Of a stretch of DNA of 40,216 nucleotides, positions 1,652-39,904 are shown piece after piece. The position numbers and the translations under genes were made by a program. Each line of letters starts with the position of its first letter. Within the stretch, counting starts at the first letter, position 1. The notes under the pieces are model-generated. The model searched no databases. It saw nothing but the letters and a program-made list of their open reading frames with translations, and had not been told where the DNA came from. Location of the stretch: the sequence record OZ035730.1. One strand, written 5' to 3'. This DNA is from Kayfunavirus CLBP1.

Positions 1652-3415
1652 TTGAGTAAAGACTTAGTGGCGCGTCAGGCGCTAATGACTGCACGTATGA
1701 AGGCAGACTTCGTGTTCTTCCTGTTCGTCCTGTGGAAAGCTCTGTCACTCCCAGTCCCGACTCGCTGTCAGATTGACATGGCGAAGAAACTATCGGCTGG
1801 GGACAACAGGCGCTTCATCCTACAGGCGTTCCGTGGTATAGGGAAGTCCTTCATTACGTGTGCCTTCGTTGTCTGGAAGCTATGGAACAACCCAGACTTG
1901 AAGTTCATGATTGTGTCTGCCTCAAAGGAACGAGCCGATGCTAACTCCATCTTCATCAAGCGTATCATCGACCTCATGCCTCAGCTTCGGGAACTCAAAC
2001 CTAAGCAGGGACAGCGAGATGCGGTTATCAGCTTCGACGTTGGACCAGCCAAGCCAGACCACTCACCTTCGGTTAAGTCAGTTGGTATCACAGGTCAGTT
2101 GACTGGTAGTCGTGCTGACATCTTGATTGCCGATGACGTAGAGGTTCCGAACAACTCAGCGACTCAGGCTGCACGAGACCGTCTGTCAGAGCTTGTGAAA
2201 GAGTTCGACGCTATCCTGAAGCCGGGAGGTACAATCATCTATCTGGGTACTCCTCAGAACGAGATGACCTTGTATCGTGAGCTGGAAGGCCGTGGGTACA
2301 CCACTACTATCTGGCCTGCTCGTTATCCACGCGACAGGAAGGACTGGCAGTCTTACGGCGACCGTCTGGCACCGATGCTTCAGGCAGAGCTTGAAGAGGA
2401 CCCTGAGGCCTTCTACTGGCGTCCGACCGATGAAGTTCGCTTCGACGATACTGACCTGAAGGAACGTGAGCTGTCCTATGGTAAAGCTGGCTTCGCTCTA
2501 CAGTTCATGCTTAACCCGAACCTGAGTGATGCCGAGAAGTACCCTCTGAAGCTCCGTGACCTTATCGTAGCAGACTTGGACCCAGCATCCAGCCCAATGG
2601 TCTACCAATGGTTGCCTAACCCTCAGAACAAGCGTGAGGACGTTCCTAACGTTGGACTCATGGGCGACTCATACCACACGTACCAGACTGTAGGTTCTGC
2701 CTTCAGTTCGTACACCCAGAAGATTCTGGTCATTGACCCTAGCGGTCGTGGTAAGGATGAAACTGGTTATGCGGTACTGTATCAGCTCAACGGCTACATC
2801 TTCGCTATGGAAGTCGGAGGTATGCGTGGTGGTTATGAAGACTCTACTCTGGAAGCGCTAGCTAAGATTGGTCGTAAGTGGAAGGTCAACGAATACGTCA
2901 TTGAGGGTAACTTCGGTGATGGTATGTACCTTGAGCTATTCAAGCCTGTAGCGGCCCGTATCCATCCTGCGGCTGTAACTGAAGTGAAGAGTAAGGGTCA
3001 GAAAGAACTCCGCATCTGTGACGTTCTGGAGCCTATCATGGGGTCTCACAGACTTATCGTCAACGCTGCTGCTATCGTCCAAGACTATCAGACAGCCGCT
3101 GATAAGGATGGTGTTCGTAACCCTATCTACTCTCTCTTCTACCAGATGACACGTATCTCTCGTGAACGCGGAGCCTTGGCACACGATGACCGACTTGATG
3201 CGCTGGCTATCGGTGTACAGTTCTTCGTTGAGTCTATGGCTAAGGATGCCAACAAAGGCGAACGTGAAGTCACTGAGGAGTGGCTGGAGGAACAGATGGA
3301 GAACCCACGGAAAGGCTTCGAGTCCATCCACACTGAGTTCTGGGACAATGGGGTCCGGGTAACTCACAATACGGACGACGAGCTGGGACTAGGGGCTTAC
3401 GTTACGTTCCACTAG
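1652..3415 (+). CDS. Large terminase subunit (T7 gp19-like, DNA maturation protein B)
   Basis: 587 aa; TTG start with SD GAGGTG; long collinear match to T7 gp19 ([103 protein letters not shown]). Confidence 0.95.
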
Positions 3416-3505
3416 CTGAATAACTATAGGCGAAAACTGAATTAATAAGCAGTTAGTAACCTATAGTTACTACCAGTCTAACCTACTGTTTTACAAGGAG
3501 TTTGG

Positions 3506-3528
3506 ACTTAACTATCACTATAGGGAAG
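3506..3528 (+). promoter_or_regulatory. Phage RNAP promoter (phiOR-like)
   Basis: ACTTAACTATCACTATAGGGAAG, exact match to the core repeated 11 times; +1 G at 3523; position after gene 19 as T7 phiOR. Confidence 0.75.
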
Positions 3529-3708
3529 ACCCCCGGTTACTTATAGTATTACTGTAGTGAATATACATATGCAGACTTTATGCAAGACCTTAGGAGGCAG
3601 ACTCAGAGTTCTTACCTAAGGCTTGCACCGATGGAAGGAGGGTGATATTAATCATAATCCCTCCAATACAGATAGTCACCGACCATAGATACAGGAGGTA
3701 TGTAGCAT

Positions 3709-3867
3709 ATGGAAAAGACCAAAGCTGTACTTAAAGCTCTGGCGACCAATCGAGCTACATACAGGTTTCTTGCTGCTGTTCTACTTGCTGCTGGCGTTAC
3801 TGCTGGAAGTAAGTGGGTCGGGTGGGTCGAGACTCTCGTATGTTCTCTGGTGTCTGAGTGTAATTAA
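3709..3867 (+). CDS. Small hydrophobic protein (gp19.5-like by position)
   Basis: 52 aa hand-translated MEKTKAVLKALATNRATYRFLAAVLLAAGVTAGSKWVGWVETLVCSLVSECN; strong SD AGGAGG 8 nt upstream; downstream of the phiOR-like promoter as T7 gene 19.5. Confidence 0.5.
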   Translation: MEKTKAVLKALATNRATYRFLAAVLLAAGVTAGSKWVGWVETLVCSLVSECN

Positions 3868-4104
3868 CGCAATCATGGTAACAATCAACGAAAGCAAGAC
3901 CTAAGGTCAGTTCATAGCTGACGCTACTCTACTGACCTTAGCTACTGTAGTCAAGGACTTTAGGTAACACCTTAAGAGAAGCTCACTTAGGGTCATCCTA
4001 CTGATTGGTCTATCCTAGTGTCGCCTGACCTACGGTCCTTGACCTACAGTGGCTGTGGCCTACAGTAGTGACGATGAGTTTTGGACCAAAAGTTTGAGAC
4101 CACA

Positions 4105-4295
4105 TCTCACAGTTCAAGAACCTAAAGTCTCCCCATAGGCCCTCTTTCAGTCCAGACCAAAGGCCCTACCCCAGTCTATCATAAGGTTGGACCGATGGTC
4201 AAGACGTTAGGTCGACGATAGGTTGAGGCTATGGCTTAGGGAAGGACGATAGGTTGGGACTATTGGTCTTCTTTGAGTCTCTATCTGTATAACCA
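4105..4295. repeat. Probable physical genome terminus and terminal-repeat region (one collapsed copy)
   Basis: TCTCACAGTTCAAGAACCTAAAGTCTCCCCATAGG at 4105 closely resembles the first bases of the T7 left end; GTCTCTATCTGTA near 4280 resembles the end of the T7 terminal repeat. Boundaries are approximate. Confidence 0.4.
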
Positions 4296-4440
4296 TAGGT
4301 CCTACAACCATAGGTCTAACAACCTACAGTCTCACTAACCTACAGTCACAACCATAAGACACTGACATCCTACAGTCATAGACATACAGCTAATAGACAC
4401 AAAGCCATAGACTTAAGGTCTAAGACATGTTAGTCAAAGA
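4296..4440. repeat. Array of short imperfect direct repeats (ACCATAGGTC / ACCTACAGTC family)
   Basis: Tandem-like recurrences AACCATAGGTCCTACAACCATAGGTCTAACAACCTACAGTCTCACTAACCTACAGTCACAACCATAAGAC; positional analogue of the CCTAAAG repeats after the T7 terminal repeat. Confidence 0.5.
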
Positions 4441-4694
4441 CTATATCCTCTTAGTCACTATGGGGCCGACGATAGCTTAATCAATATTATTTCAAATTAC
4501 CTATTGACTATATGTCCAGACTATGGCCTAATAGCTTCCGTCAACACGACACGGCAGTAAACGCTAGGTAACTAGCAACGACTCACCGAGATGGTGACTC
4601 ACAGTAGGTCAGGACGATAGGTTGAATGGTCTAGCCAGTACGGAAGATTGCAGAAGGAACTAAGCGTACCGACCTCAGAGCTGAAAGAAAGTAG

Positions 4695-4723
4695 TTGACA
4701 AGTAGTAAGACTTAACGTAGTAT
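4695..4723 (+). promoter_or_regulatory. Host sigma70 early promoter (T7 A3-like)
   Basis: TTGACA (4695-4700), 17-nt spacer, TAGTAT (4718-4723); downstream GTACCACAT resembles the T7 A3 promoter region. Confidence 0.6.
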
Positions 4724-4808
4724 GTACCACATCAACGAGAAACAATCCGGTAAAGTGCAATATATAAGGTGGTGCAATGGAGCAACGCCTATTAATGAGG
4801 GTAGCATC

Positions 4809-5042
4809 ATGATCAACCAAATCAAAACTACTAAATCAAATGTTAACGGCAACGTTTCTCACTTTATCGGTGATAACGAAAGAGGCACACCATACGCCGC
4901 CGTAACCGTGCAACCAAATGGCGATTATTGGTTTACCGTGTATGGATCATACTCTTTTGGACGTCCGGCGCATGATAAGATCTTGCAAGCGGTTAAGCCT
5001 ACAGGGAAGAATATTACAGCAGAAAAGTTTTATAAAAAGTAG
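4809..5042 (+). CDS. Hypothetical small protein (77 aa), AT-rich early gene upstream of ocr
   Basis: ATG with GAGG 7 nt upstream; MINQIKTTKSNVNGNVSHFIGDNERGTPYAAVTVQPNGDYWFTVYGSYSFGRPAHDKILQAVKPTGKNITAEKFYKK; visibly more AT-rich than the flanking genes. Track start 4722 overlaps the promoter -10 and has no SD. Confidence 0.5.
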   Translation: MINQIKTTKSNVNGNVSHFIGDNERGTPYAAVTVQPNGDYWFTVYGSYSFGRPAHDKILQAVKPTGKNITAEKFYKK

Positions 5043-5122
5043 CTTGCTTTGTGCGATCTGTTAACTTATAGCGGCCTGACTGATAGTCACTAACACATAC
5101 TTAACTTTGAGAGGATATAACT

Positions 5123-5611
5123 ATGGAACGTAACGCTAACGCATACTATGAGCTGCTGGCTGCAACCGTTGAAGCATTTAACGAGCGTATTCAGTACGAC
5201 GAAATAGCTGAAGGCGATGACTACCACGATGCGCTGCATGAAGTCGTAGACGGTCAGGTCCCGCACTATTACCACGAGATTTTCACGGTGATGGCTGCTG
5301 ATGGTATAGACCACGAGTTTGAGGACGCTGGGCTGATGCCTGAGACCAAGGACGTAACGCGTATACTGCAAGCTCGCATCTATGAGGCACTGTATAACGA
5401 TGTGTCTAATAGCTCGGATGTAGTCTGGTTCGAGGGCGAATACTGGGTGGTTGATGCTGAGACAGGGGCAATCATTGAGCAGGAGGGATCACTTGAGGAA
5501 GCTATTACATGCGCTAAAAAATTCTATCCGATAGGTCGCCACCTGAAGGTCGAGGACATCAACGATAACGTAGTGTTCGACCCTGCGGCTGCTGAAGAGG
5601 ACTGCGAGTGA
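5123..5611 (+). CDS. ocr: Ocr-like anti-restriction DNA mimic (gp0.3-like) with C-terminal extension
   Basis: N-terminal ~95 aa match remembered T7 Ocr ([64 protein letters not shown]); acidic; 162 aa versus 117 in T7. Confidence 0.8.
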
Positions 5612-5757
5612 TGGTAACTTATGGTATCTGCCAGTACCACGTCACCAACGCCCGGCTTATGGTCCAGACCGGGCAGTTAACCCATGACGCGGCTATGCGT
5701 CACCTGAAGGCGGTCTACGAGGGACGCAAGCGCATACACGACAGTGAGGATAAGTAA
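5611..5757 (+). CDS. Hypothetical early small protein (48 aa)
   Basis: Hand-translated [48 protein letters not shown]; ATG overlaps ocr stop (TGATG). Confidence 0.3.
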   Translation: MVTYGICQYHVTNARLMVQTGQLTHDAAMRHLKAVYEGRKRIHDSEDK

Positions 5758-5759
5758 AC

Positions 5760-5885
5760 ATGTGCCAGATAACTTATAGCAGTGAACAGGCGTTCTACGA
5801 TGGGTGCTACGAGATGATGAAGCGTGGGGCTTGCTACATAGCTAATCACCAAAGCCTGACCATAACGCTTACAGGTGGGTACTGA
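5760..5885 (+). CDS. Hypothetical early small Cys-containing protein (41 aa)
   Basis: Hand-translated MCQITYSSEQAFYDGCYEMMKRGACYIANHQSLTITLTGGY; GAGGA 9 nt upstream. Confidence 0.3.
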   Translation: MCQITYSSEQAFYDGCYEMMKRGACYIANHQSLTITLTGGY

Positions 5886-5955
5886 GTGATAGACGAGAGG
5901 TCATCGACTGATAGGTGGCCTCAAAGATTACCACTTGCATTAATAGGAGTTAACT

Positions 5956-6123
5956 ATGAAATTTACAGTCATCGCACTTTACGTAACCATTATTCTATCC
6001 TGGCTAACGGCGGTACTCATTGATGGGAACGCATTACGACTAGGCTGGCTGGCAGTGGACATTATATTCTCTCCGGTAGGGGTAGTGCGCGGCATCTTGA
6101 TGTGGATTGGACTGGCGGGATAA
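5956..6123 (+). CDS. Hypothetical small membrane protein (55 aa)
   Basis: SD AGGAG 6 nt upstream; MKFTVIALYVTIILSWLTAVLIDGNALRLGWLAVDIIFSPVGVVRGILMWIGLAG, two hydrophobic helices. Confidence 0.5.
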   Translation: MKFTVIALYVTIILSWLTAVLIDGNALRLGWLAVDIIFSPVGVVRGILMWIGLAG

Positions 6124-6126
6124 ACT

Positions 6127-6324
6127 ATGATAGCTGCACTATTGATAGCCATAGGCTATGGGCTTATCGCCTACGTGCTGGTGAGAGACATTAACAAGGC
6201 GCGTAAAGTCTACAAATTAAACTATGTACGTCTGGGTCGCTGGACTGTACGTCAACCTAACGGGCGATTCATGCGCAACTTAGCGAACGTCTGGGATATA
6301 GCAACACTTGGGAGCAAACTGTAA
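6127..6324 (+). CDS. Hypothetical small membrane-anchored protein (65 aa)
   Basis: N-terminal hydrophobic helix MIAALLIAIGYGLIAYVLV then basic region; tightly packed after the preceding ORF. Confidence 0.45.
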   Translation: MIAALLIAIGYGLIAYVLVRDINKARKVYKLNYVRLGRWTVRQPNGRFMRNLANVWDIATLGSKL

Positions 6325-6650
6325 TGAACAAGTCATACGGGATTAATCTGGTACACTCTATGGACGCAGACATGCAAATGTTAAGCCTACTGGCTACCGG
6401 GTATCGTCACGGAACGTCAAGTCACTCCGCACGTCAACAGCAGGAGCGGGACCGTGTACTACAGGCACGACTCCGGGCTGAGGGCCATAAGTCCGAACTG
6501 ATGTGTCTGGCGTATGGTGGACGACCAATCACTGATGATGGTAAACTTCTGGTCTCAGGCTGGAAGGCGATAGACCAACGGTCAACAATCCAGCACACGA
6601 CTCATGGTGACTTCAGTCATCTTCACGCTAACCCACTGATATTAAAGTGA
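6324..6650 (+). CDS. Hypothetical early protein (108 aa)
   Basis: ATG overlaps preceding stop (TAATG); occupies the slot where T7 has gene 0.7 but is far shorter and has no kinase motifs. Confidence 0.45.
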   Translation: MNKSYGINLVHSMDADMQMLSLLATGYRHGTSSHSARQQQERDRVLQARLRAEGHKSELMCLAYGGRPITDDGKLLVSGWKAIDQRSTIQHTTHGDFSHLHANPLILK

Positions 6651-6655
6651 TTCTG

Positions 6656-6678
6656 ACTTAACTATCACTATAGGACTC
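6656..6678 (+). promoter_or_regulatory. Phage RNAP promoter immediately upstream of the RNAP gene
   Basis: ACTTAACTATCACTATAGGACTC, exact core; +1 G at 6673, 75 nt upstream of the gene 1 ATG. Confidence 0.75.
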
Positions 6679-6747
6679 AAGGTCTAAGACTCCAAGTGAA
6701 AGACCAAAGAGACTTTAAGTGAAAGACTAATAACAAGGACTTTAAGT

Positions 6748-9429
6748 ATGAGCGTCATCTCTATTGACAAACACGACTTCTCTGATGTGTCGAACGCCAT
6801 TGAGCCGTTTAACCTGCTGGCTGACCACTACGGGCAAGACCTTGCAGTCAAACAGCTTCAGCTTGAGCATGAGGCATACACTGAAGGCGAGCGACGTTTC
6901 ATCAAGAACCTTGAGCGCCAGACTGAGCGCGGAGAACTGGCAGACAATCAGGTCGCCAAGCCTTTGATGCAGACTCTGGTCCCTAAGATTGCGCAAGCCG
7001 TCAAGGAGTGGCATGAAGGTCAAGACGGGAAGCTGTCAACCTCTCGTCCGAGCGTAGCGTTCACCATGTTGAGCACTGAAGAGAAGGCCGTCAAGGACCG
7101 CTCTCTGCGCATCTCCTGTGAGTCTGCTGCGGTTATCATACTGAAGGTCATCCTCTCCAAGCTGGTCAAGCCTGAAGGGATACCGATTACACCTATGGCC
7201 TCAGCGATAGGTCGCACACTTGAGGATGAAATCCGATTCGGTCGCATTCGTGACAAGGAGAAGGAGCACTTCAAGAAGGTGATAGCTGATAACCTGAACA
7301 AGAGAGCCGGGGCATCATACAAGAAAGCCTACATGCAAGCGGTCGAGACATCCATGCTGGAGCAGGGTCAACTGGAAGATGCGTGGGGAACTTGGAGTCC
7401 GACAGAAGCGGTACACGTTGGCATCAAGATGCTTGAGATTGTCATACAGTCCACACAACTGGTCGAGCTTAAGCGTTACGGTGCTGGCAATGCAGCTGCT
7501 GACGTTGAGATGGTCCACCTGTCAGACTTCTGGGTCAAGAAGATGACACAACGTGGGTTCAGCCTTGCGGGTATTGCGCCAGTCTACCAGCCTTGCGTCG
7601 TTCCACCTAAACCGTGGACTGGTGTCGTAGGAGGTGGGTACTGGGCCAAAGGTCGCAGACCACTACCACTGATTCGCTTAGGGTCTAAGTCTGCGGTGGC
7701 GCGTTACGAAGACGTGTACATGCCTGAAGTCTATGACGCTGTGAATATCATCCAGAATACACCTTGGAAAGTTAACAAGAAGGTACTGGAAGTGGTGAAC
7801 ACGGTCGAGAAGCTGAACAACACGCCTATTGACGACATCCCTCAGATGGAGCCACTGAAGCCTGAAGACTATGCGGGTGAGACTGAAGAGGAACTCAAGG
7901 CATGGAAGAAGGCTGCTGCTGGTATCTACCGCCGAGAGAAGGCCCGGCAGTCACGCAGATTGTCACTGAGCTTTATCGTTAACCAAGCGAACAAGTTTTC
8001 TCAGTTCAAGGCCATCTGGTTCCCGTACAACATGGACTGGCGCGGTCGCGTCTACGCTGTGCCGATGTTCAACCCTCAGGGTAACGACATGCAAAAGGGT
8101 CTACTGACTCTGGCAGTCGGCAAGCCTATTGGTGCCGATGGATTTAAATGGCTGAAGGTACACGGTGCAAACTGTGCGGGTGTCGATAAAGTCACCTTCG
8201 AGGAGCGCATCAAGTGGGTGGAAGACAACCACGACAACATCATGGCTGCTGCTAAGGCACCGATGGACAGCATTGAGTGGTGGGGCAAGTTAGACTCTCC
8301 GTTCTGCTTCCTTGCGTTCTGCTTCGAGTATGCTGGCGTAATGCACCACGGATTGTCTTACTCCTGCTCGCTTCCGATAGCGTTCGATGGGTCCTGCTCT
8401 GGGATTCAGCACTTCAGCGCGATGCTTCGTGACCACATCGGTGGACATGCAGTAAACCTGACGCCTTCCGGTAAGGTCCAAGACATCTACCGCATCGTGT
8501 CTGACCGCGTTGAGGAGGAGCTTAAAGTCCTGCTGGTTAACGGCACGGACAACGAGATGGTAACTCACGAGGACAAGAAAACTGGTGAGATTACCGAACG
8601 TCTCAAGCTGGGGACACGAGAGCTGGCCCGGCAGTGGCTGACTTACGGTATGTCACGCAAGGTTACTAAGCGCTCAGTCATGACTCTGGCCTACGGGTCG
8701 AAAGAGTACGGCTTCGCAGACCAAGTTTATGAGGACATCGTGATGCCAGCGATTGACTCAGGGTCTGGCGCTATGTTCACCGAGCCAAGCCAAGCGTCTC
8801 GCTTCATGGCTAAGATGATTTGGGAAGCTGTGAGTGTGACCGTAGTTGCTGCGGTTGACGCGATGAAGTGGCTTCAAGGTGCTGCCAAGCTGCTGGCTGC
8901 TGAAGTGAAGGACAAGAAGACTGGTGAAATCCTGAAGCCTTGCCTTCCGGTACACTGGGTCACGCCTGATGGTTTCCCGGTATGGCAGGAATACCGCAAG
9001 AAGGATACCACTCGTCTGAACCTGATGTTCTTAGGGTCCTTCAACCTTCAACCTACGGTCAACAAAGGTACGAAGAAAGAGCTGGATAAGCACAAGCAGG
9101 AGTCAGGCATTAGCCCAAACTTCGTCCACTCACAAGATGGTAGCCACCTACGCAAGACTGTAGTCCACACGCATCGCAAGTATGGCGTGATGTCATTCGC
9201 AGTGATTCACGATAGCTTCGGGACCATCCCGGCTGACGCTGAATATCTGTTCCGTGGTGTCCGTGAGACGATGGTTGAGACATACCGCGACAACGATGTG
9301 CTGCTTGACTTCTACGAGCAGTTTGAATGCCAGCTTCATGAGAGCCAGCGCGACAAGTTGCCTGAGCTACCGAAGAAAGGTAAACTGAATATCGAAGACA
9401 TCTTGTCTTCAGATTTTGCATTCGCTTAA
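6748..9429 (+). CDS. Single-subunit DNA-dependent RNA polymerase (T7 gp1-like)
   Basis: 893 aa; conserved T7 RNAP family motifs throughout (PMFNPQGNDMQKGLLT, HGANCAGVDK, DGSCSGIQHFSAM, SFGTIPADA, C-terminal FAFA). Confidence 0.97.
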   Translation: MSVISIDKHDFSDVSNAIEPFNLLADHYGQDLAVKQLQLEHEAYTEGERRFIKNLERQTERGELADNQVAKPLMQTLVPKIAQAVKEWHEGQDGKLSTSRPSVAFTMLSTEEKAVKDRSLRISCESAAVIILKVILSKLVKPEGIPITPMASAIGRTLEDEIRFGRIRDKEKEHFKKVIADNLNKRAGASYKKAYMQAVETSMLEQGQLEDAWGTWSPTEAVHVGIKMLEIVIQSTQLVELKRYGAGNAAADVEMVHLSDFWVKKMTQRGFSLAGIAPVYQPCVVPPKPWTGVVGGGYWAKGRRPLPLIRLGSKSAVARYEDVYMPEVYDAVNIIQNTPWKVNKKVLEVVNTVEKLNNTPIDDIPQMEPLKPEDYAGETEEELKAWKKAAAGIYRREKARQSRRLSLSFIVNQANKFSQFKAIWFPYNMDWRGRVYAVPMFNPQGNDMQKGLLTLAVGKPIGADGFKWLKVHGANCAGVDKVTFEERIKWVEDNHDNIMAAAKAPMDSIEWWGKLDSPFCFLAFCFEYAGVMHHGLSYSCSLPIAFDGSCSGIQHFSAMLRDHIGGHAVNLTPSGKVQDIYRIVSDRVEEELKVLLVNGTDNEMVTHEDKKTGEITERLKLGTRELARQWLTYGMSRKVTKRSVMTLAYGSKEYGFADQVYEDIVMPAIDSGSGAMFTEPSQASRFMAKMIWEAVSVTVVAAVDAMKWLQGAAKLLAAEVKDKKTGEILKPCLPVHWVTPDGFPVWQEYRKKDTTRLNLMFLGSFNLQPTVNKGTKKELDKHKQESGISPNFVHSQDGSHLRKTVVHTHRKYGVMSFAVIHDSFGTIPADAEYLFRGVRETMVETYRDNDVLLDFYEQFECQLHESQRDKLPELPKKGKLNIEDILSSDFAFA

Positions 9430-19304: not shown

Positions 19305-19902
19305 TAACATCATGGTGCACATTAAATCTGGTGAACTCGGTGAACTCCTAATGGGACAATACCGAGCCAAGCCATAGGGAGGATGTATGAGAGGCAAGAA
19401 GTTAATTCTTGAGGCCACTGAGACTGGCTGCATAATCCCTACGTCACATAAATTGAATCAGGATGGATACTTCCGAAAGAGGACTAACGGTGTCCTTGAG
19501 ATGTATCATAGAACTGTATGGATTAAAGCTAATGGTCCAATACCTGAAGGTTTCGAAGTAGACCACAAGTGTCGTAATAGAGCTTGTTGCAACGTCGAAC
19601 ATCTACAAGTATTATACCGGGACTCACACTTAGTCAAGACCAACAAAGAGCGATACGCTGCTAGGAAGCTAGAAGCACGAGACTACTGGGTAGAGACTGG
19701 GTGTACTGGAACGAAGTTAGCCGAAGTATTCAATGTGTCGTTCTCAGCCGCCTGTGGGTGGATTAGAGAGTGGAAGGCGTAGAGACTATCCGAAAGGAGT
19801 AGGGCCGTGGGTGAGATTCCCACGTAACCCGAAGCGCCAGACAGTCACCTCAAAGACTGATGATATAGTCCGACACTTCCAGTAATGGGAGAATACAGAA
19901 AG
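19305..19902 (+). mobile_element. Group I intron (about 598 nt) interrupting the DNA polymerase gene, carrying an HNH endonuclease ORF
   Basis: Separates two polymerase segments in different frames; exon end GUGCAU (19299-19304) pairs with intron GUGCAC (19315-19320); CAUC (19308-19311) complements exon-2 GAUG; last intron base is G (19902); GATATAGTCCGAC (19862-19874) resembles the group I P7 3' strand. Confidence 0.75.
19387..19782 (+). CDS. Intron-encoded HNH homing endonuclease
   Basis: 131 aa; own SD GGGAGG; EVDHKCRNRACCNVEHLQ HNH/zinc motif; lies entirely inside the intron. Confidence 0.8.
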   Translation: MRGKKLILEATETGCIIPTSHKLNQDGYFRKRTNGVLEMYHRTVWIKANGPIPEGFEVDHKCRNRACCNVEHLQVLYRDSHLVKTNKERYAARKLEARDYWVETGCTGTKLAEVFNVSFSAACGWIREWKA

Positions 19903-20058
19903 GATGAGTTACAGATTGCTTGTCGTACTCAAGAAATAGCAGAACGTACAGTAGAAATTGCTCAACTTGCTATGCGTAAGGTGGGTGAGTTCTATAACTT
20001 TAAATGTGTCCTTGATACCGAAGGTAAGATTGGACCAACGTGGAAGGAGTGTCACTAA
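19903..20058 (+). CDS. DNA polymerase (T7 gp5-like), exon 2 (C-terminal 51 codons)
   Basis: Hand-translated DELQIACRTQEIAERTVEIAQLAMRKVGEFYNFKCVLDTEGKIGPTWKECH, aligns with T7 DNAP C-terminus DEIQVGCRTEEIAQ...DTEGKMGPNWAICH; no SD before this segment. Confidence 0.85.
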   Translation, partial: DELQIACRTQEIAERTVEIAQLAMRKVGEFYNFKCVLDTEGKIGPTWKECH

Positions 20059-30337: not shown

Positions 30338-30808
30338 ATGTATATTCGTAAAGCTACGGAACCGGATGTCCACTACTTTCTGTGGCATCTTTCAGCAGAT
30401 GATGTTAACGAATGCAAAGCAAACTACGGGTCAACCGTGGGTCTCTCTGAGAGACTGCTTAAGCATCTATCTCCATCATCTGTGGTTTTAACGAACGGTG
30501 TAGGTGAAGTGTTTGCCTATGGTGGAAACCAAGGGGATAACGTATGGTTCTTGACTTCAGGTCTGGTCTATAAGCTGAGACCTAAAGAGAAGCGAGAGTT
30601 CATAAAGTGTATCTCTGAGTACAGGGACTTAATGTTAGACCAATACGGGACCATCTGGAACTACGTGTGGTCAGGCAATAAGTCTCACATTAAATTCTTG
30701 AAGTTGCTTGGCGCTAAATTCCATGATGATTGGACTGTAAGCCCAGTAACTGGTGAGCGTTTTCAACTATTCACTATCTCTAAGGAGGACGTATGTGCGA
30801 GCCAGTAA
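30338..30808 (+). CDS. Internal virion protein A (gp13-like by position)
   Basis: ATG 30338 with SD GAGGAG; 156 aa; assignment by synteny only. Track ORF 30260 starts upstream inside the promoter. Confidence 0.55.
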   Translation: MYIRKATEPDVHYFLWHLSADDVNECKANYGSTVGLSERLLKHLSPSSVVLTNGVGEVFAYGGNQGDNVWFLTSGLVYKLRPKEKREFIKCISEYRDLMLDQYGTIWNYVWSGNKSHIKFLKLLGAKFHDDWTVSPVTGERFQLFTISKEDVCASQ

Positions 30809-37627: not shown

Positions 37628-39904
37628 ATGTCCACGATTACACAATTCCCTTCAGGAAACACTCAGTACAGGATTGAGTTCGACTACCTAGCCAGAACGT
37701 TTGTTGTTGTTACGCTGGTGAATAGCTCTAACCCTACCCTTAACCGTGTACTGGAAGTTGGTCGAGATTACCGATTCCTTAATCCAACGATGATTGAGAT
37801 GTTGGTTGACCAATCAGGTTTCGACATCGTTCGTATTCACCGTCAGACTGGAACTGACTTAGTGGTAGACTTCAGGAATGGCTCAGTGTTGACAGCTAGC
37901 GACCTGACCAATGCAGAGCTTCAGGCTATCCATATTGCAGAAGAAGGTCGAGACCAAACGGTTGACTTAGCGAAGGAATATGCCGATGCTGCTGGTGACT
38001 CTGCTGGCAACGCTAAGGATAGCGAGGACGAAGCACGACGAATCGCTGAGAGTATCAAGGCAGCTGGTCGAATTGGCTATATTACCCGTCGCTCCTTCGA
38101 GAAAGGCTTCAACGTTACAACATGGAACGAGGTCCTGTTATGGGAAGAGGATGGTGAGTATTACCGCTGGGATGGTACGCTTCCAAAGAACGTTCCTGCT
38201 GGTTCAACTCCTAACACCGCTGGGGGCATTGGTTTAGGTGCGTGGGTTGGCGTTGGTGATGCATCATTGCGCAGCAATTTATCAGAAAATGATGGCGCCT
38301 TGATAGTAGGTGGAGCTATTCTTGAATGCCAAACGGTAGCACAGGCGCAAGAGATATCTGGTTTAACGGAAGGTCGAAAGGTAAGAACATACTATTATAA
38401 TGTCCCAGTTGTAACAGATTGGGTGTTCACCCCCACCGCGCCGTCCGGTGGGGTTTTCTACATTCCCGCTGTCGGTGGTTACTTGATATTAATGACGCCT
38501 AACTTCGCTTCCGCTGGCATTATTGAAGGTGAATATGTTCCGCTAAACGCCGCACATAACCGTAATGTAATTCAAAAACTGGTAAGAGACACAAGATTCA
38601 GTAAATTTGAATATGGAGCAACAGGTACTTTTTATGTTCTCGGCTCTATTCATCCATTACGAGATAATATAGAAATACACCACGAAGCTGGGGTTACAGT
38701 TATGGGGCGTTACGATGACCCCACGGTAGGTCCAGAAATTATGGGGTTAAACTCCGGCGGTATGTGGTCCTTTGCACACTTTCTCAACCCTGATGCAACG
38801 GTTTGGGATGACAATAACTACACAATTACAGCTGTTATGAAAAATGTTACCTACGTTCTTAACGGAAAGATAGGTACAGAATATAACTCCATTCATTCTA
38901 AACCGCACAACAACAACCCTATTGGTTTCTTTACTTGTGAAAACTGTAGCGTTGTCGGCTCTGGCGGGGTTATTGGGTCTGACCACAGAGGCATTAACGT
39001 AGATGGTGCAGGGGATAATTGCCGTATAGATATCGGGTACGCTACAGGAACCAGCAACAACCCGATTCAAATGAAAATAAACGCTGAACGCTACGCTTTT
39101 GTTAAAGTTGGTGCGGTCTATGGGGTTAAGTTTGATGGCGGTCAAACAAAGGCTGTGGTGTGGTGCGGCGGTGGGCGTGTTGATGTAGAAGTCGGTAACT
39201 ACAGGTGGGATGGGGTGAATAAACCAATCCTCGCTTACGGCAACGGTTGCCAGGAAATAACTTTAAAGGCTGGCATAATATCCGGCGTTTCGCAATTAAT
39301 ACGTCAGTACAATACCCCTGTAGCTAGAGTTCTGTCAGCATGGGTTAATAATACAGACTCTCTCATAAACAAAGCAGAAGATTCTGACAAGGAAGGTGTG
39401 ACCAAGATTTCTGAGATTCGAGGTGTGAACGCCGTCGACACGGTACTAACTAGCGCATTCTATGATGAAACGAAATTAGCGAATCAAGATGTTGTTACTA
39501 TAACCGGAAACGATTTCAGAAACGCTGGACCATCATTCCTTTACTTTAAAGGTAAAACAGCTGGTGGTGCTATTAGGTTGTGGAACGTTAATAACAACCT
39601 CGACCCTGTAGGTCTTGCGGACCTTTCAGACTGGAATATTTTGCTGGGGCAAAGTGTCGTTACTACAGTTTCAGCAACTTCTTTCACGTACACTATGTCC
39701 CGTAGATATGAAAATATCACAATTGCCGTAACGGAATCCGCCACCCTACGGTATGTTACGGTTAGCTTACGAGCGCACCTGTCGTCGTCAACTACGGCGT
39801 CATACATAGTCGGCGGCACGTCTATGACTGTCTCGAGGTCCGGCGATATTTTTACTTTTACGGTTAACTCCGGAACTATAAATTTTTACGTATTACATAA
39901 CTAA
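37628..39904 (+). CDS. Tail fibre / tailspike: gp17-like N-terminal anchor plus distinct C-terminal domain
   Basis: First ~150 aa resemble T7 gp17 N-terminus ([42 protein letters not shown]); from about 38270 the DNA becomes AT-rich and the protein is Gly/Asn/Val/Thr-rich and unlike T7 gp17. Confidence 0.85.

Follow-up and report, generated by a model that had tools for sequence, protein, structure and literature searches.

The stretch of DNA analysed here, of 40,216 nucleotides and hereafter named the window, comes from Kayfunavirus CLBP1 (OZ035730.1). Between a sigma-70-type early promoter and an ocr-like anti-restriction gene it carries a small gene of 77 codons, gene 0.15, which is the subject of this study. 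Over positions 4400-5700, identity to Escherichia phage CLB_P1 (KC109329; Autographiviridae, Kayfunavirus) is 100%, and the window is a circular permutation of that record. The window position equals the record position + 4270, so that the physical left end of the genome is at window position 4271. Gene 0.15 lies at 539-772 bp from this end and is the first credible gene past the terminal repeat region. In T7, the left-end part of the genome is the first to enter the cell, and it is transcribed by the host RNA polymerase. We consider it nearly certain that gene 0.15 came in by horizontal transfer as a single-gene cassette, that selection acts on it as a protein, and that it is the first cistron behind a conserved early promoter. 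The features of the locus are collected in Table 1.

Table 1. Features of the early region around gene 0.15, in window coordinates.
Feature	Position	Strand	Basis
Sigma-70-type early promoter (TTGACA, 17 nt, TAGTAT), Kayfunavirus backbone	4695-4723	+	Consensus scan and conservation
Left recombination junction, microhomology CGGT(A/G)AAG at 4748-4755	4744-4755	+	BLAST limits and alignments
Myovirus-type 5' leader, with small predicted hairpin 4767-4790 and Shine-Dalgarno site 4797-4802	4756-4808	+	Intergenic alignment
Gene 0.15, 77 codons + stop, basic small alpha/beta protein of phrog_9227	4809-5042	+	Homology, selection, predicted fold
3' flank of myoviral origin; right junction 5060-5071 (GTTAACTTATAG), myoviral/K1F-type overlap	5043-5071	+	DNA alignments
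Backbone leader of ocr, including the 20-nt element TGACTGATAGTCACTAACAC (5075-5094)	5072-5122	+	DNA alignments
ocr-like anti-restriction gene, 162 aa, next cistron (context, outside the cassette)	5123-5611	+	Pfam ocr, phrog_2568

The alignments show that positions 4744-5071 (~330 bp) have the make-up of a single-gene cassette of myoviral origin, standing in place of the gene 0.2 of K1F-type phages. Identity to the DNA of Stephanstirmvirinae is 87-90% over 4802/4808-5071, and reaches 29 nt beyond the stop codon of gene 0.15. Homology to K1F-type phages ends near 4755 and resumes at 5060. At both limits the two sources overlap: on the left, backbone-like and cassette-like sequence coincide over the microhomology, and on the right, GTTA.ACT..TAG is common to both parents. 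The left junction holds a remnant -10 hexamer, TAAAGT (4751-4756), of the myoviral early promoter (TAAACT/TAAAGT). The corresponding -35 is lost, so that the cassette now depends on the Kayfunavirus promoter. Upstream of the gene, positions 4744-4811 have 78-81% identity to the intergenic leader of another small gene in phages PaulScherrer and phiWec181, and the combination of leader and gene present in the CLB_P1 cassette appears in none of the sampled genomes. The cassette illustrates cleanly a gene replacement, mediated by microhomology, between virulent phages that belong to different families. Folding of the leader was no better than that of shuffled sequences (z 0.81), and the spacer between gene 0.15 and ocr was no more stable than shuffles. 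We therefore make no claim of a structured RNA, and the hairpin is predicted only. In this hairpin, the CLB_P1 and myoviral versions differ by one compensatory change, G-C to A-U.

Accessory regions of phages have been described as variable genes between conserved flanks of related phages (Silas et al., bioRxiv 10.1101/2023.04.06.535777). We measured the length of the slot before ocr as the distance from GTACCACAT to the ocr ATG among the relatives compared, and found at least four states: 198 nt without an open reading frame (ORF) in SH3, 399 nt with gene 0.15 in CLB_P1, 516-520 nt with gp0.2 in K1F and PhiNW-B1, and 870 nt with gp0.2 plus a 92-aa phrog_9817 gene in PM129 and SHAK7854. The slot flanks are 86-94% identical among relatives, so that variable content is found between conserved flanks. 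In K1F, the place of the CLB_P1 cassette is taken by ~420 bp with gene 0.2 (81-84 aa, phrog_10124). Horizontal transfer into this slot is indicated by the DNA identity to Stephanstirmvirinae given above, a donor-like base composition, and the presence of the gene in a single T7-like phage. A preliminary description of the locus had placed the ORF behind an early host promoter and directly before ocr, which is where it lies. It had also regarded the ORF as inserted there and filling the space; what we find is instead the replacement of a K1F-type gene 0.2 in a slot of several states.

The element TGACTGATAGTCACTAACAC, which lies in the ocr leader, occurs twice in K1F, once ahead of gene 0.2 (749-768) and once ahead of ocr (about 1065-1084). 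Possible roles are those of a processing site, or of a recombination substrate bracketing the variable slot. The two slot flanks also differ in their affinities: on the left, 4550-4733 is, at 94%, nearer to Citrobacter phages SH4/SH5 and Salmonella ST phages than to K1F, and on the right the flank is K1F-like (93% identity). The early region of CLB_P1 is thus a mosaic even within its backbone.

In GenBank, the ORF is recorded as CLBP1_0.15 (gp0.15), with a start at window position 4722, a length of 106 aa, the label 'hypothetical protein' and a note on its similarity to rV5 gp170. This start is too far upstream, and 77 aa, rather than 106 aa, is the right length. The annotated ATG lies within the -10 hexamer of the early promoter and has no Shine-Dalgarno site, and the 29 extra residues are absent from every homologue. 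The ATG at 4809 is preceded by the Shine-Dalgarno site GAGGGT, and intact homologues all begin at its equivalent, with MI(E/N/G)QIK, length and start being both conserved. The profile of phrog_9227, a family of unknown function with 77 positions, matches the protein end to end (E 2.5e-46; residues 1-77 to profile positions 1-76), and covers residues 30-106 of the GenBank version, which is exactly the 77-aa form. The 77-codon frame with a Shine-Dalgarno site announced in the preliminary description is thereby supported in its length by both the homologue starts and the protein family. Between the CLB_P1 copy and two myoviral copies, we counted 16-20 synonymous and 5-6 non-synonymous differences, the ratio of non-synonymous to synonymous substitution rates (dN/dS) being 0.045-0.081. 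The proteins differ at 3-5 amino acids, for a dS of 0.4-0.6. Such ratios imply that the frame 4809-5042 codes for a protein under purifying selection, and early gene 0.15 is a real and well-conserved protein-coding gene. Three ORFs on the minus strand (4599-4820, 4712-4852 and 4836-4913) were set aside: they straddle the junction between backbone and cassette, and the substitution pattern fits the + frame.

The gene had been described as AT-richer than its neighbours, at third codon positions as well, and the quantitative check bears this out. Its GC content (41.1%) is the lowest among 48 ORFs of the + strand, in a window of 50.1% GC, and its GC at third codon positions (GC3; 41.6%) is the third lowest (mean 54.6%, standard deviation 7.6). 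Given only 77 codons, we estimate this deviation at ~2.3-2.7 binomial standard deviations, and base composition by itself is only suggestive of a foreign origin. The question is settled by the homology to foreign phages. Other + strand ORFs with an outlying composition are 19885-20058 (57 aa, GC3 33%), 3709-3867 (52 aa, phrog_2193, GC3 38.5%), 30338-30808 (156 aa, GC 44%) and 37628-39904, a 758-aa ORF near the right end, probably a tailspike (GC 45.7%, GC3 42%). These four may be further horizontally acquired segments.

The early promoter has its -35 hexamer TTGACA at 4695-4700, a 17-nt spacer, and its -10 hexamer TAGTAT at 4718-4723, followed by GTACCACATC. With 10 of 12 consensus matches it is the top-ranked site of a consensus scan across 3400-7000, and the sole + strand site from the left end to ocr. 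As a class, promoter-like sites are not enriched in the region (7 observed for 5.3 +/- 2.5 expected). The site is credible because its hexamers and the downstream GTACCACATC are conserved in the alignment of SH4, PhiNW-B1 and K1F. Identity of window positions 4550-4733 to SH4 and to a set of Salmonella T7-like ST phages is 94%. Hexamers, spacing and conservation in relatives are thus those of an A3-like sigma-70 early promoter, as had been proposed, and the distance announced before ocr, about 430 bp, is 428 bp from 4695 to the ATG at 5123. The promoter resembles T7 A3 (TTGACA...TACGAT GTACCACATG), and by analogy with A3 the transcription start is predicted near 4731.

Where does the gene come from? 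Using tblastn, the protein was found in 223 phage records, CLB_P1 included. Of the other 222, all those examined were large E. coli myoviruses or pieces of such genomes. Amino-acid identity is 90-96% in the ~150-kb Stephanstirmvirinae (Phapecoctavirus, Justusliebigvirus), roughly 85% in the ~136-kb rV5-like phages, and 71-75% in jumbo phages of 310-370 kb (121Q, PBECO4 and relatives). Searches of IMG/VR, Logan and a clustered protein database returned further homologues all of the same kinds. The comparison with related genomes, for which the preliminary description had called, shows CLB_P1 to be the sole carrier among 238 records with Kayfunavirus flanks. No second T7-like carrier was found in Logan, where a 39-kb contig, like a 43-kb record, proved to be a small-gene array or an unannotated assembly contig, nor in IMG/VR, where the matching sequences were a 14.8-kb fragment and contigs of 137-349 kb. 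At 41%, the GC content of gene 0.15 is the same as in the myoviral copies (40-42%) and in their loci (38-41%). A recent acquisition had been suggested from composition. Horizontal acquisition is upheld, by homology and by GC content, but its recency is not shown: the GC is unameliorated, and dS between CLB_P1 and the sampled myoviral copies is 0.42-0.59, for 0.38 between two myoviral genera. With a dS as large as between myoviral genera, either the true donor has not been sampled or the transfer is not very recent.

In four Stephanstirmvirinae loci, the gene lies within long arrays of similarly built small genes. There a promoter of its own, TTGACA-17-TATTAT/TAATAT, precedes it by ~77 nt, and a GC hairpin comes after the promoter. 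Comparison of eight loci revealed no constant partner gene: neighbouring small genes recur at shifting positions and are absent from the jumbo phage. Since the gene itself is alone common to all eight, it behaves as a single-gene unit without a fixed partner. More generally, the small genes of these Stephanstirmvirinae loci are repeated cassettes, made of a TTGACA-17-TATTAT promoter, a GC hairpin leader, a Shine-Dalgarno site and a short ORF (for example at 5950-6001 of locus L003, 2955-3007 of L004, and upstream of 3001 in L017/L018). One leader type is reused before different genes (L003 4282-4349, L004 578-645), which would favour cassette shuffling.

We then looked at the hosts of the carriers. 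No match to gene 0.15 was found in 5,426 complete E. coli genomes, and the one match among plasmids is a 137.5-kb record, presumed to be an rV5-like phage genome. The family thus belongs to virulent phages. Capsid relatives of the Stephanstirmvirinae/rV5-like group are named after Escherichia (218 records), Klebsiella (40), Salmonella (17), Cronobacter (15), Pectobacterium (11) and Enterobacter (7). Matches to gene 0.15, by record name, are from Escherichia (189), Campylobacter (19), Salmonella (5), Acinetobacter (4), Listeria (2), 'Phage' (2), Shigella (1) and Vequintavirinae (1), and none is among phage records of Klebsiella, Cronobacter, Pectobacterium or Enterobacter. The Salmonella-named matches are 4 jumbo phages and one unannotated 43-kb contig. 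Near-identical copies are present in MG065650.1 ('Campylobacter phage B15'), OP562383.1 ('Acinetobacter phage') and OR848645.1 ('Listeria phage'); records under these three host names probably stem from contamination or from a wrongly labelled host, a point that bears on any count of hosts. As far as record names can be trusted, gene 0.15 is distributed by host species, not by phage lineage, which points to an E. coli-specific target.

The protein is basic (isoelectric point 9.65, net charge +5), as are most members of its family. An AlphaFold2 model computed with sixteen sequences, down to 36% identity, reached a predicted local distance difference test score (pLDDT) of 91.4 and a predicted template modelling score of 0.80. 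Strands are placed at 6-9, 16-22, 27-34 and 40-44, with a short bridge at 47-48 and helices at 53-62 and 70-76. BFVD holds an independent model of this protein, which superimposes on ours with a template modelling score of 0.96. The protein is thus confidently predicted to adopt a compact small alpha/beta fold, a four-strand meander capped by two helices, as a monomer. This is the structure prediction that the preliminary description had asked for, and no confident structural relative of the model was found. A first AlphaFold2 model, from eight close homologues, had a pLDDT of 63 and was discarded; with that first model, Foldseek against PDB gave nothing below E 0.07. PADLOC and NCBIfam had nothing informative on the protein, and Pfam Peripla_BP_6 (17.8 bits for a cut-off of 31.7) and other sub-threshold Pfam matches were set aside as noise.

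Downstream of the cassette, the product of 5123-5611 matches Pfam ocr over aa 8-96 (E 5e-31) and belongs to phrog_2568. It has a ~65-aa C-terminal extension past the Pfam ocr domain, with a weak sub-threshold PepSY match, and this extension is common with K1F-type gp0.3, for instance the 167-aa protein of PhiNW-B1. Further on, the 41-aa ORF CLBP1_0.351 (5760-5885), flagged in GenBank as an insertion relative to K1F, has a weak phrog_33188 match (E 1.6e-6). It is a second variable spot of the early region.

What could gene 0.15 do for CLB_P1? No terminator-like site was seen on the + strand before ocr. Host RNA polymerase would transcribe gene 0.15 from the promoter at 4695-4723, as the first cistron of the early operon, and translation from the AUG at 4809 would take place in the first minutes of infection, together with that of Ocr. 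The small basic protein may then act alone in the cytoplasm, where it would bind and neutralise a component specific to E. coli: a defence system or sensor, or else a housekeeping factor. The case for such a role, and for the anti-defence or host-shutoff function suggested in the preliminary description, is circumstantial, and is made of the early position by ocr, the variable slot, the distribution following the host, and the restriction to virulent phages. Cassette and proposed steps taken together, we give an even chance to gene 0.15 being an early accessory host-interference protein. Several points weigh against this proposal. A place beside ocr amounts to guilt by association only. SH3 has nothing in the slot, so that no slot gene is essential to the growth of Kayfunavirus. 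No similarity to characterised anti-defence proteins or defence components was found, literature searches on the peptide, rv5_gp170, phrog_9227, Kayfunavirus gp0.2 and phage proteins with blades of virginiamycin B lyase (Vgb) returned nothing relevant, and the protein is absent from the files and supplements of the Silas accessory-gene screen. The host-linked distribution rests on the organism names of records, some of which (Campylobacter, Listeria) are apparently mislabelled. Lastly, from name counts we estimate that a rough three quarters of the E. coli-infecting members of the myoviral groups carry the family, and at such an apparent frequency a general host-takeover role fits as well as counter-defence.

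Other explanations have to be compared with this host-interference proposal. That 4724-5122 is merely an untranslated ocr leader, with an ORF arising by chance, might be thought of given the short length of the ORF and the lack of any other + strand promoter-like site inside the region. It is refuted for practical purposes by the 223 homologous full-length frames in phage records, the dN/dS of 0.05-0.08, the end-to-end PHROG match, the confident fold prediction, and flanks whose RNA folds no better than shuffles. A gene that is real may nevertheless be a neutral passenger, brought by illegitimate recombination during a co-infection and useful in myoviruses only, with no role in the fitness of CLB_P1. 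CLB_P1 is indeed the lone T7-like carrier among the flank-sharing records, the slot can be empty, and the purifying selection could be mostly myoviral and anterior to the transfer. But frame, start codon and Shine-Dalgarno site are intact, few amino acids differ despite the high dS, T7-like genomes are compact and limited by packaging, and the cassette displaced another gene instead of adding length, so that we find this explanation rather unlikely. Competition between phages was also considered: an early protein might block superinfection or replication of rival phages in the same E. coli cell. Restriction of the gene to virulent phages, its exchange among lineages having E. coli as common host, the early promoters before it, and the proposal that accessory genes antagonise host defences or other viruses (bioRxiv 10.1101/2023.04.06.535777) would all agree with it. 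Carrier phages would however need to be insensitive themselves, and a reading of the sequence shows neither a signal peptide nor a membrane segment, although the envelope is where many exclusion proteins act; we hold such a role to be quite unlikely. As for a minimal GNAT-like protein, binding coenzyme A or a nucleotide, or acetylating a host target, it seems to us very improbable.

A last alternative comes from a resemblance to propeller blades: the protein might be a single Vgb-type blade that self-assembles into a homo-oligomeric ring, serving as a binding platform or a small-molecule sponge. Homo-oligomeric propellers assembled from fragments are known (eLife 2019, PMC6805158), and a phmmer search of PDB returned Vgb and streptogramin lyases, which are seven-bladed propellers, with E 1e-9 to 2e-7. 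This score is however a sum over several blades, each single-blade match being weak (i-E-value 0.09 or worse), and with the family profile the PDB match weakens to E 0.002. A HMMER scan of 1.84 billion representatives gave ~ten clusters of 76-84-aa proteins and ~fifty long proteins with 3-13 matched stretches, and the long proteins inspected are built of P.GITAGPDGALWFTN.G.NSIGRIT repeats. Aligned by hhalign, family and blade profile match with 93.6% probability (E 2e-7), and a blade hidden Markov model (HMM) scores 21.6 bits on the CLB_P1 protein, for a maximum of 5.2 in 300 shuffles; the blade profile was built from proteins picked by their similarity to the phage family, and is thus not independent. 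Curated models stay far below their cut-offs (Pfam PF24684, 18 bits for 50; NCBIfam Vgb(A) and Vgb(B), 16.3 and 13.7 bits for 600), and the protein has the length of one blade (77 aa) when seven-bladed members have ~290-300 residues, hence membership in the Vgb family was rejected. Within the phage family, the blade HMM gives 20-24 bits in the CLB_P1-like subfamily, but 0-2 bits, which is the range of shuffles, in the divergent members P0011, P0012, P0014, P0015, P0017, P0063 and P0064, so the motif is not conserved throughout, whereas common descent would lead one to expect that it is. Since AlphaFold2 also predicts a self-contained monomer, we regard a self-assembling propeller as improbable. 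The resemblance possibly reflects the evolutionary origin of one subfamily, or a convergent motif in it, and is no guide to function.

The gene, its family and the rV5 similarity were already in databases, GenBank listing gp0.15 with its relation to rV5 gp170, so that as a gene it had already been described. New are the corrected start codon, the limits of the cassette, the microhomology junctions, the displacement of gene 0.2 from a slot of several states, the host-linked distribution, the confident predicted fold and the qualified blade resemblance. In a T7-like phage, the slot before ocr holds the coding sequence to which the host is exposed first, and a gene moved there from unrelated giant myoviruses and kept intact by selection makes a focused host-interference candidate that is cheap to test. 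The family is found in over 200 E. coli phage records, among which the BASEL phages PaulScherrer and EduardKellenberger, and is absent from relatives on Klebsiella, Cronobacter and Pectobacterium, a contrast suggesting an E. coli-specific target. As an early accessory gene next to ocr, gene 0.15 is a sensible candidate for screening, and no surprise to the specialist; if its function is trivial, it is an ordinary mosaic accessory gene. A broader proposal is that gp0.15/phrog_9227 founds a new stand-alone family of early counter-defence or host-takeover proteins, with an undescribed mini-fold (possibly derived from a propeller blade) and an E. coli-specific target, and useful enough to have passed between unrelated lineages of virulent coliphages, namely Stephanstirmvirinae, rV5-like phages, 121Q/PBECO4-type jumbo phages and a Kayfunavirus. 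We put it forward tentatively, as possible rather than probable.

Among known systems, the myoviral members of phrog_9227, such as rV5 gp170 and Bas60_0143, are orthologues of gene 0.15, with 70-96% identity and the same length and start; copies in the Stephanstirmvirinae loci examined differ by having their own sigma-70 promoter, whereas the CLB_P1 gene is under a T7-like early promoter. K1F gp0.2 (phrog_10124) and other occupants of the slot have the same slot, promoter and downstream ocr, and a similar size (81-84 aa), but are unrelated in sequence, gp0.2 being distributed like the backbone within Kayfunavirus while gene 0.15 comes from myoviruses. Ocr (T7 gp0.3), a highly acidic helical DNA mimic, belongs to the same early operon as the adjacent cistron, and is likewise small and expected to be cytoplasmic and early. 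The gene 0.15 protein differs from it by a predicted beta-meander with two helices and by the lack of a Pfam ocr match, and since it is basic it is not an Ocr-like DNA mimic. The minimal GNAT-fold proteins YjdJ (5i0c) and At1g77540 (1xmt) are also among the closest known systems. Vgb blades (PDB 2z2n/2z2p; PF24684) resemble it over a motif of ~43 residues (PY..VT..PNGDYWFT..G...FGR for P.GIT.GPDG.LWFT..G.N.IGR), but come as seven repeats instead of one, and the phage model is a closed mini-domain with helices, not a propeller. Finally, a precedent for host interference is orf24, a narrowly distributed gene in one accessory region with ocr, reported to trigger cell death in one E. coli strain (bioRxiv 10.1101/2023.04.06.535777). 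Although gene 0.15 lies outside the set of genes screened in that study, it resembles those accessory genes, orf24 in particular, in being variable, flanked by conserved sequence, horizontally exchanged and next to ocr.

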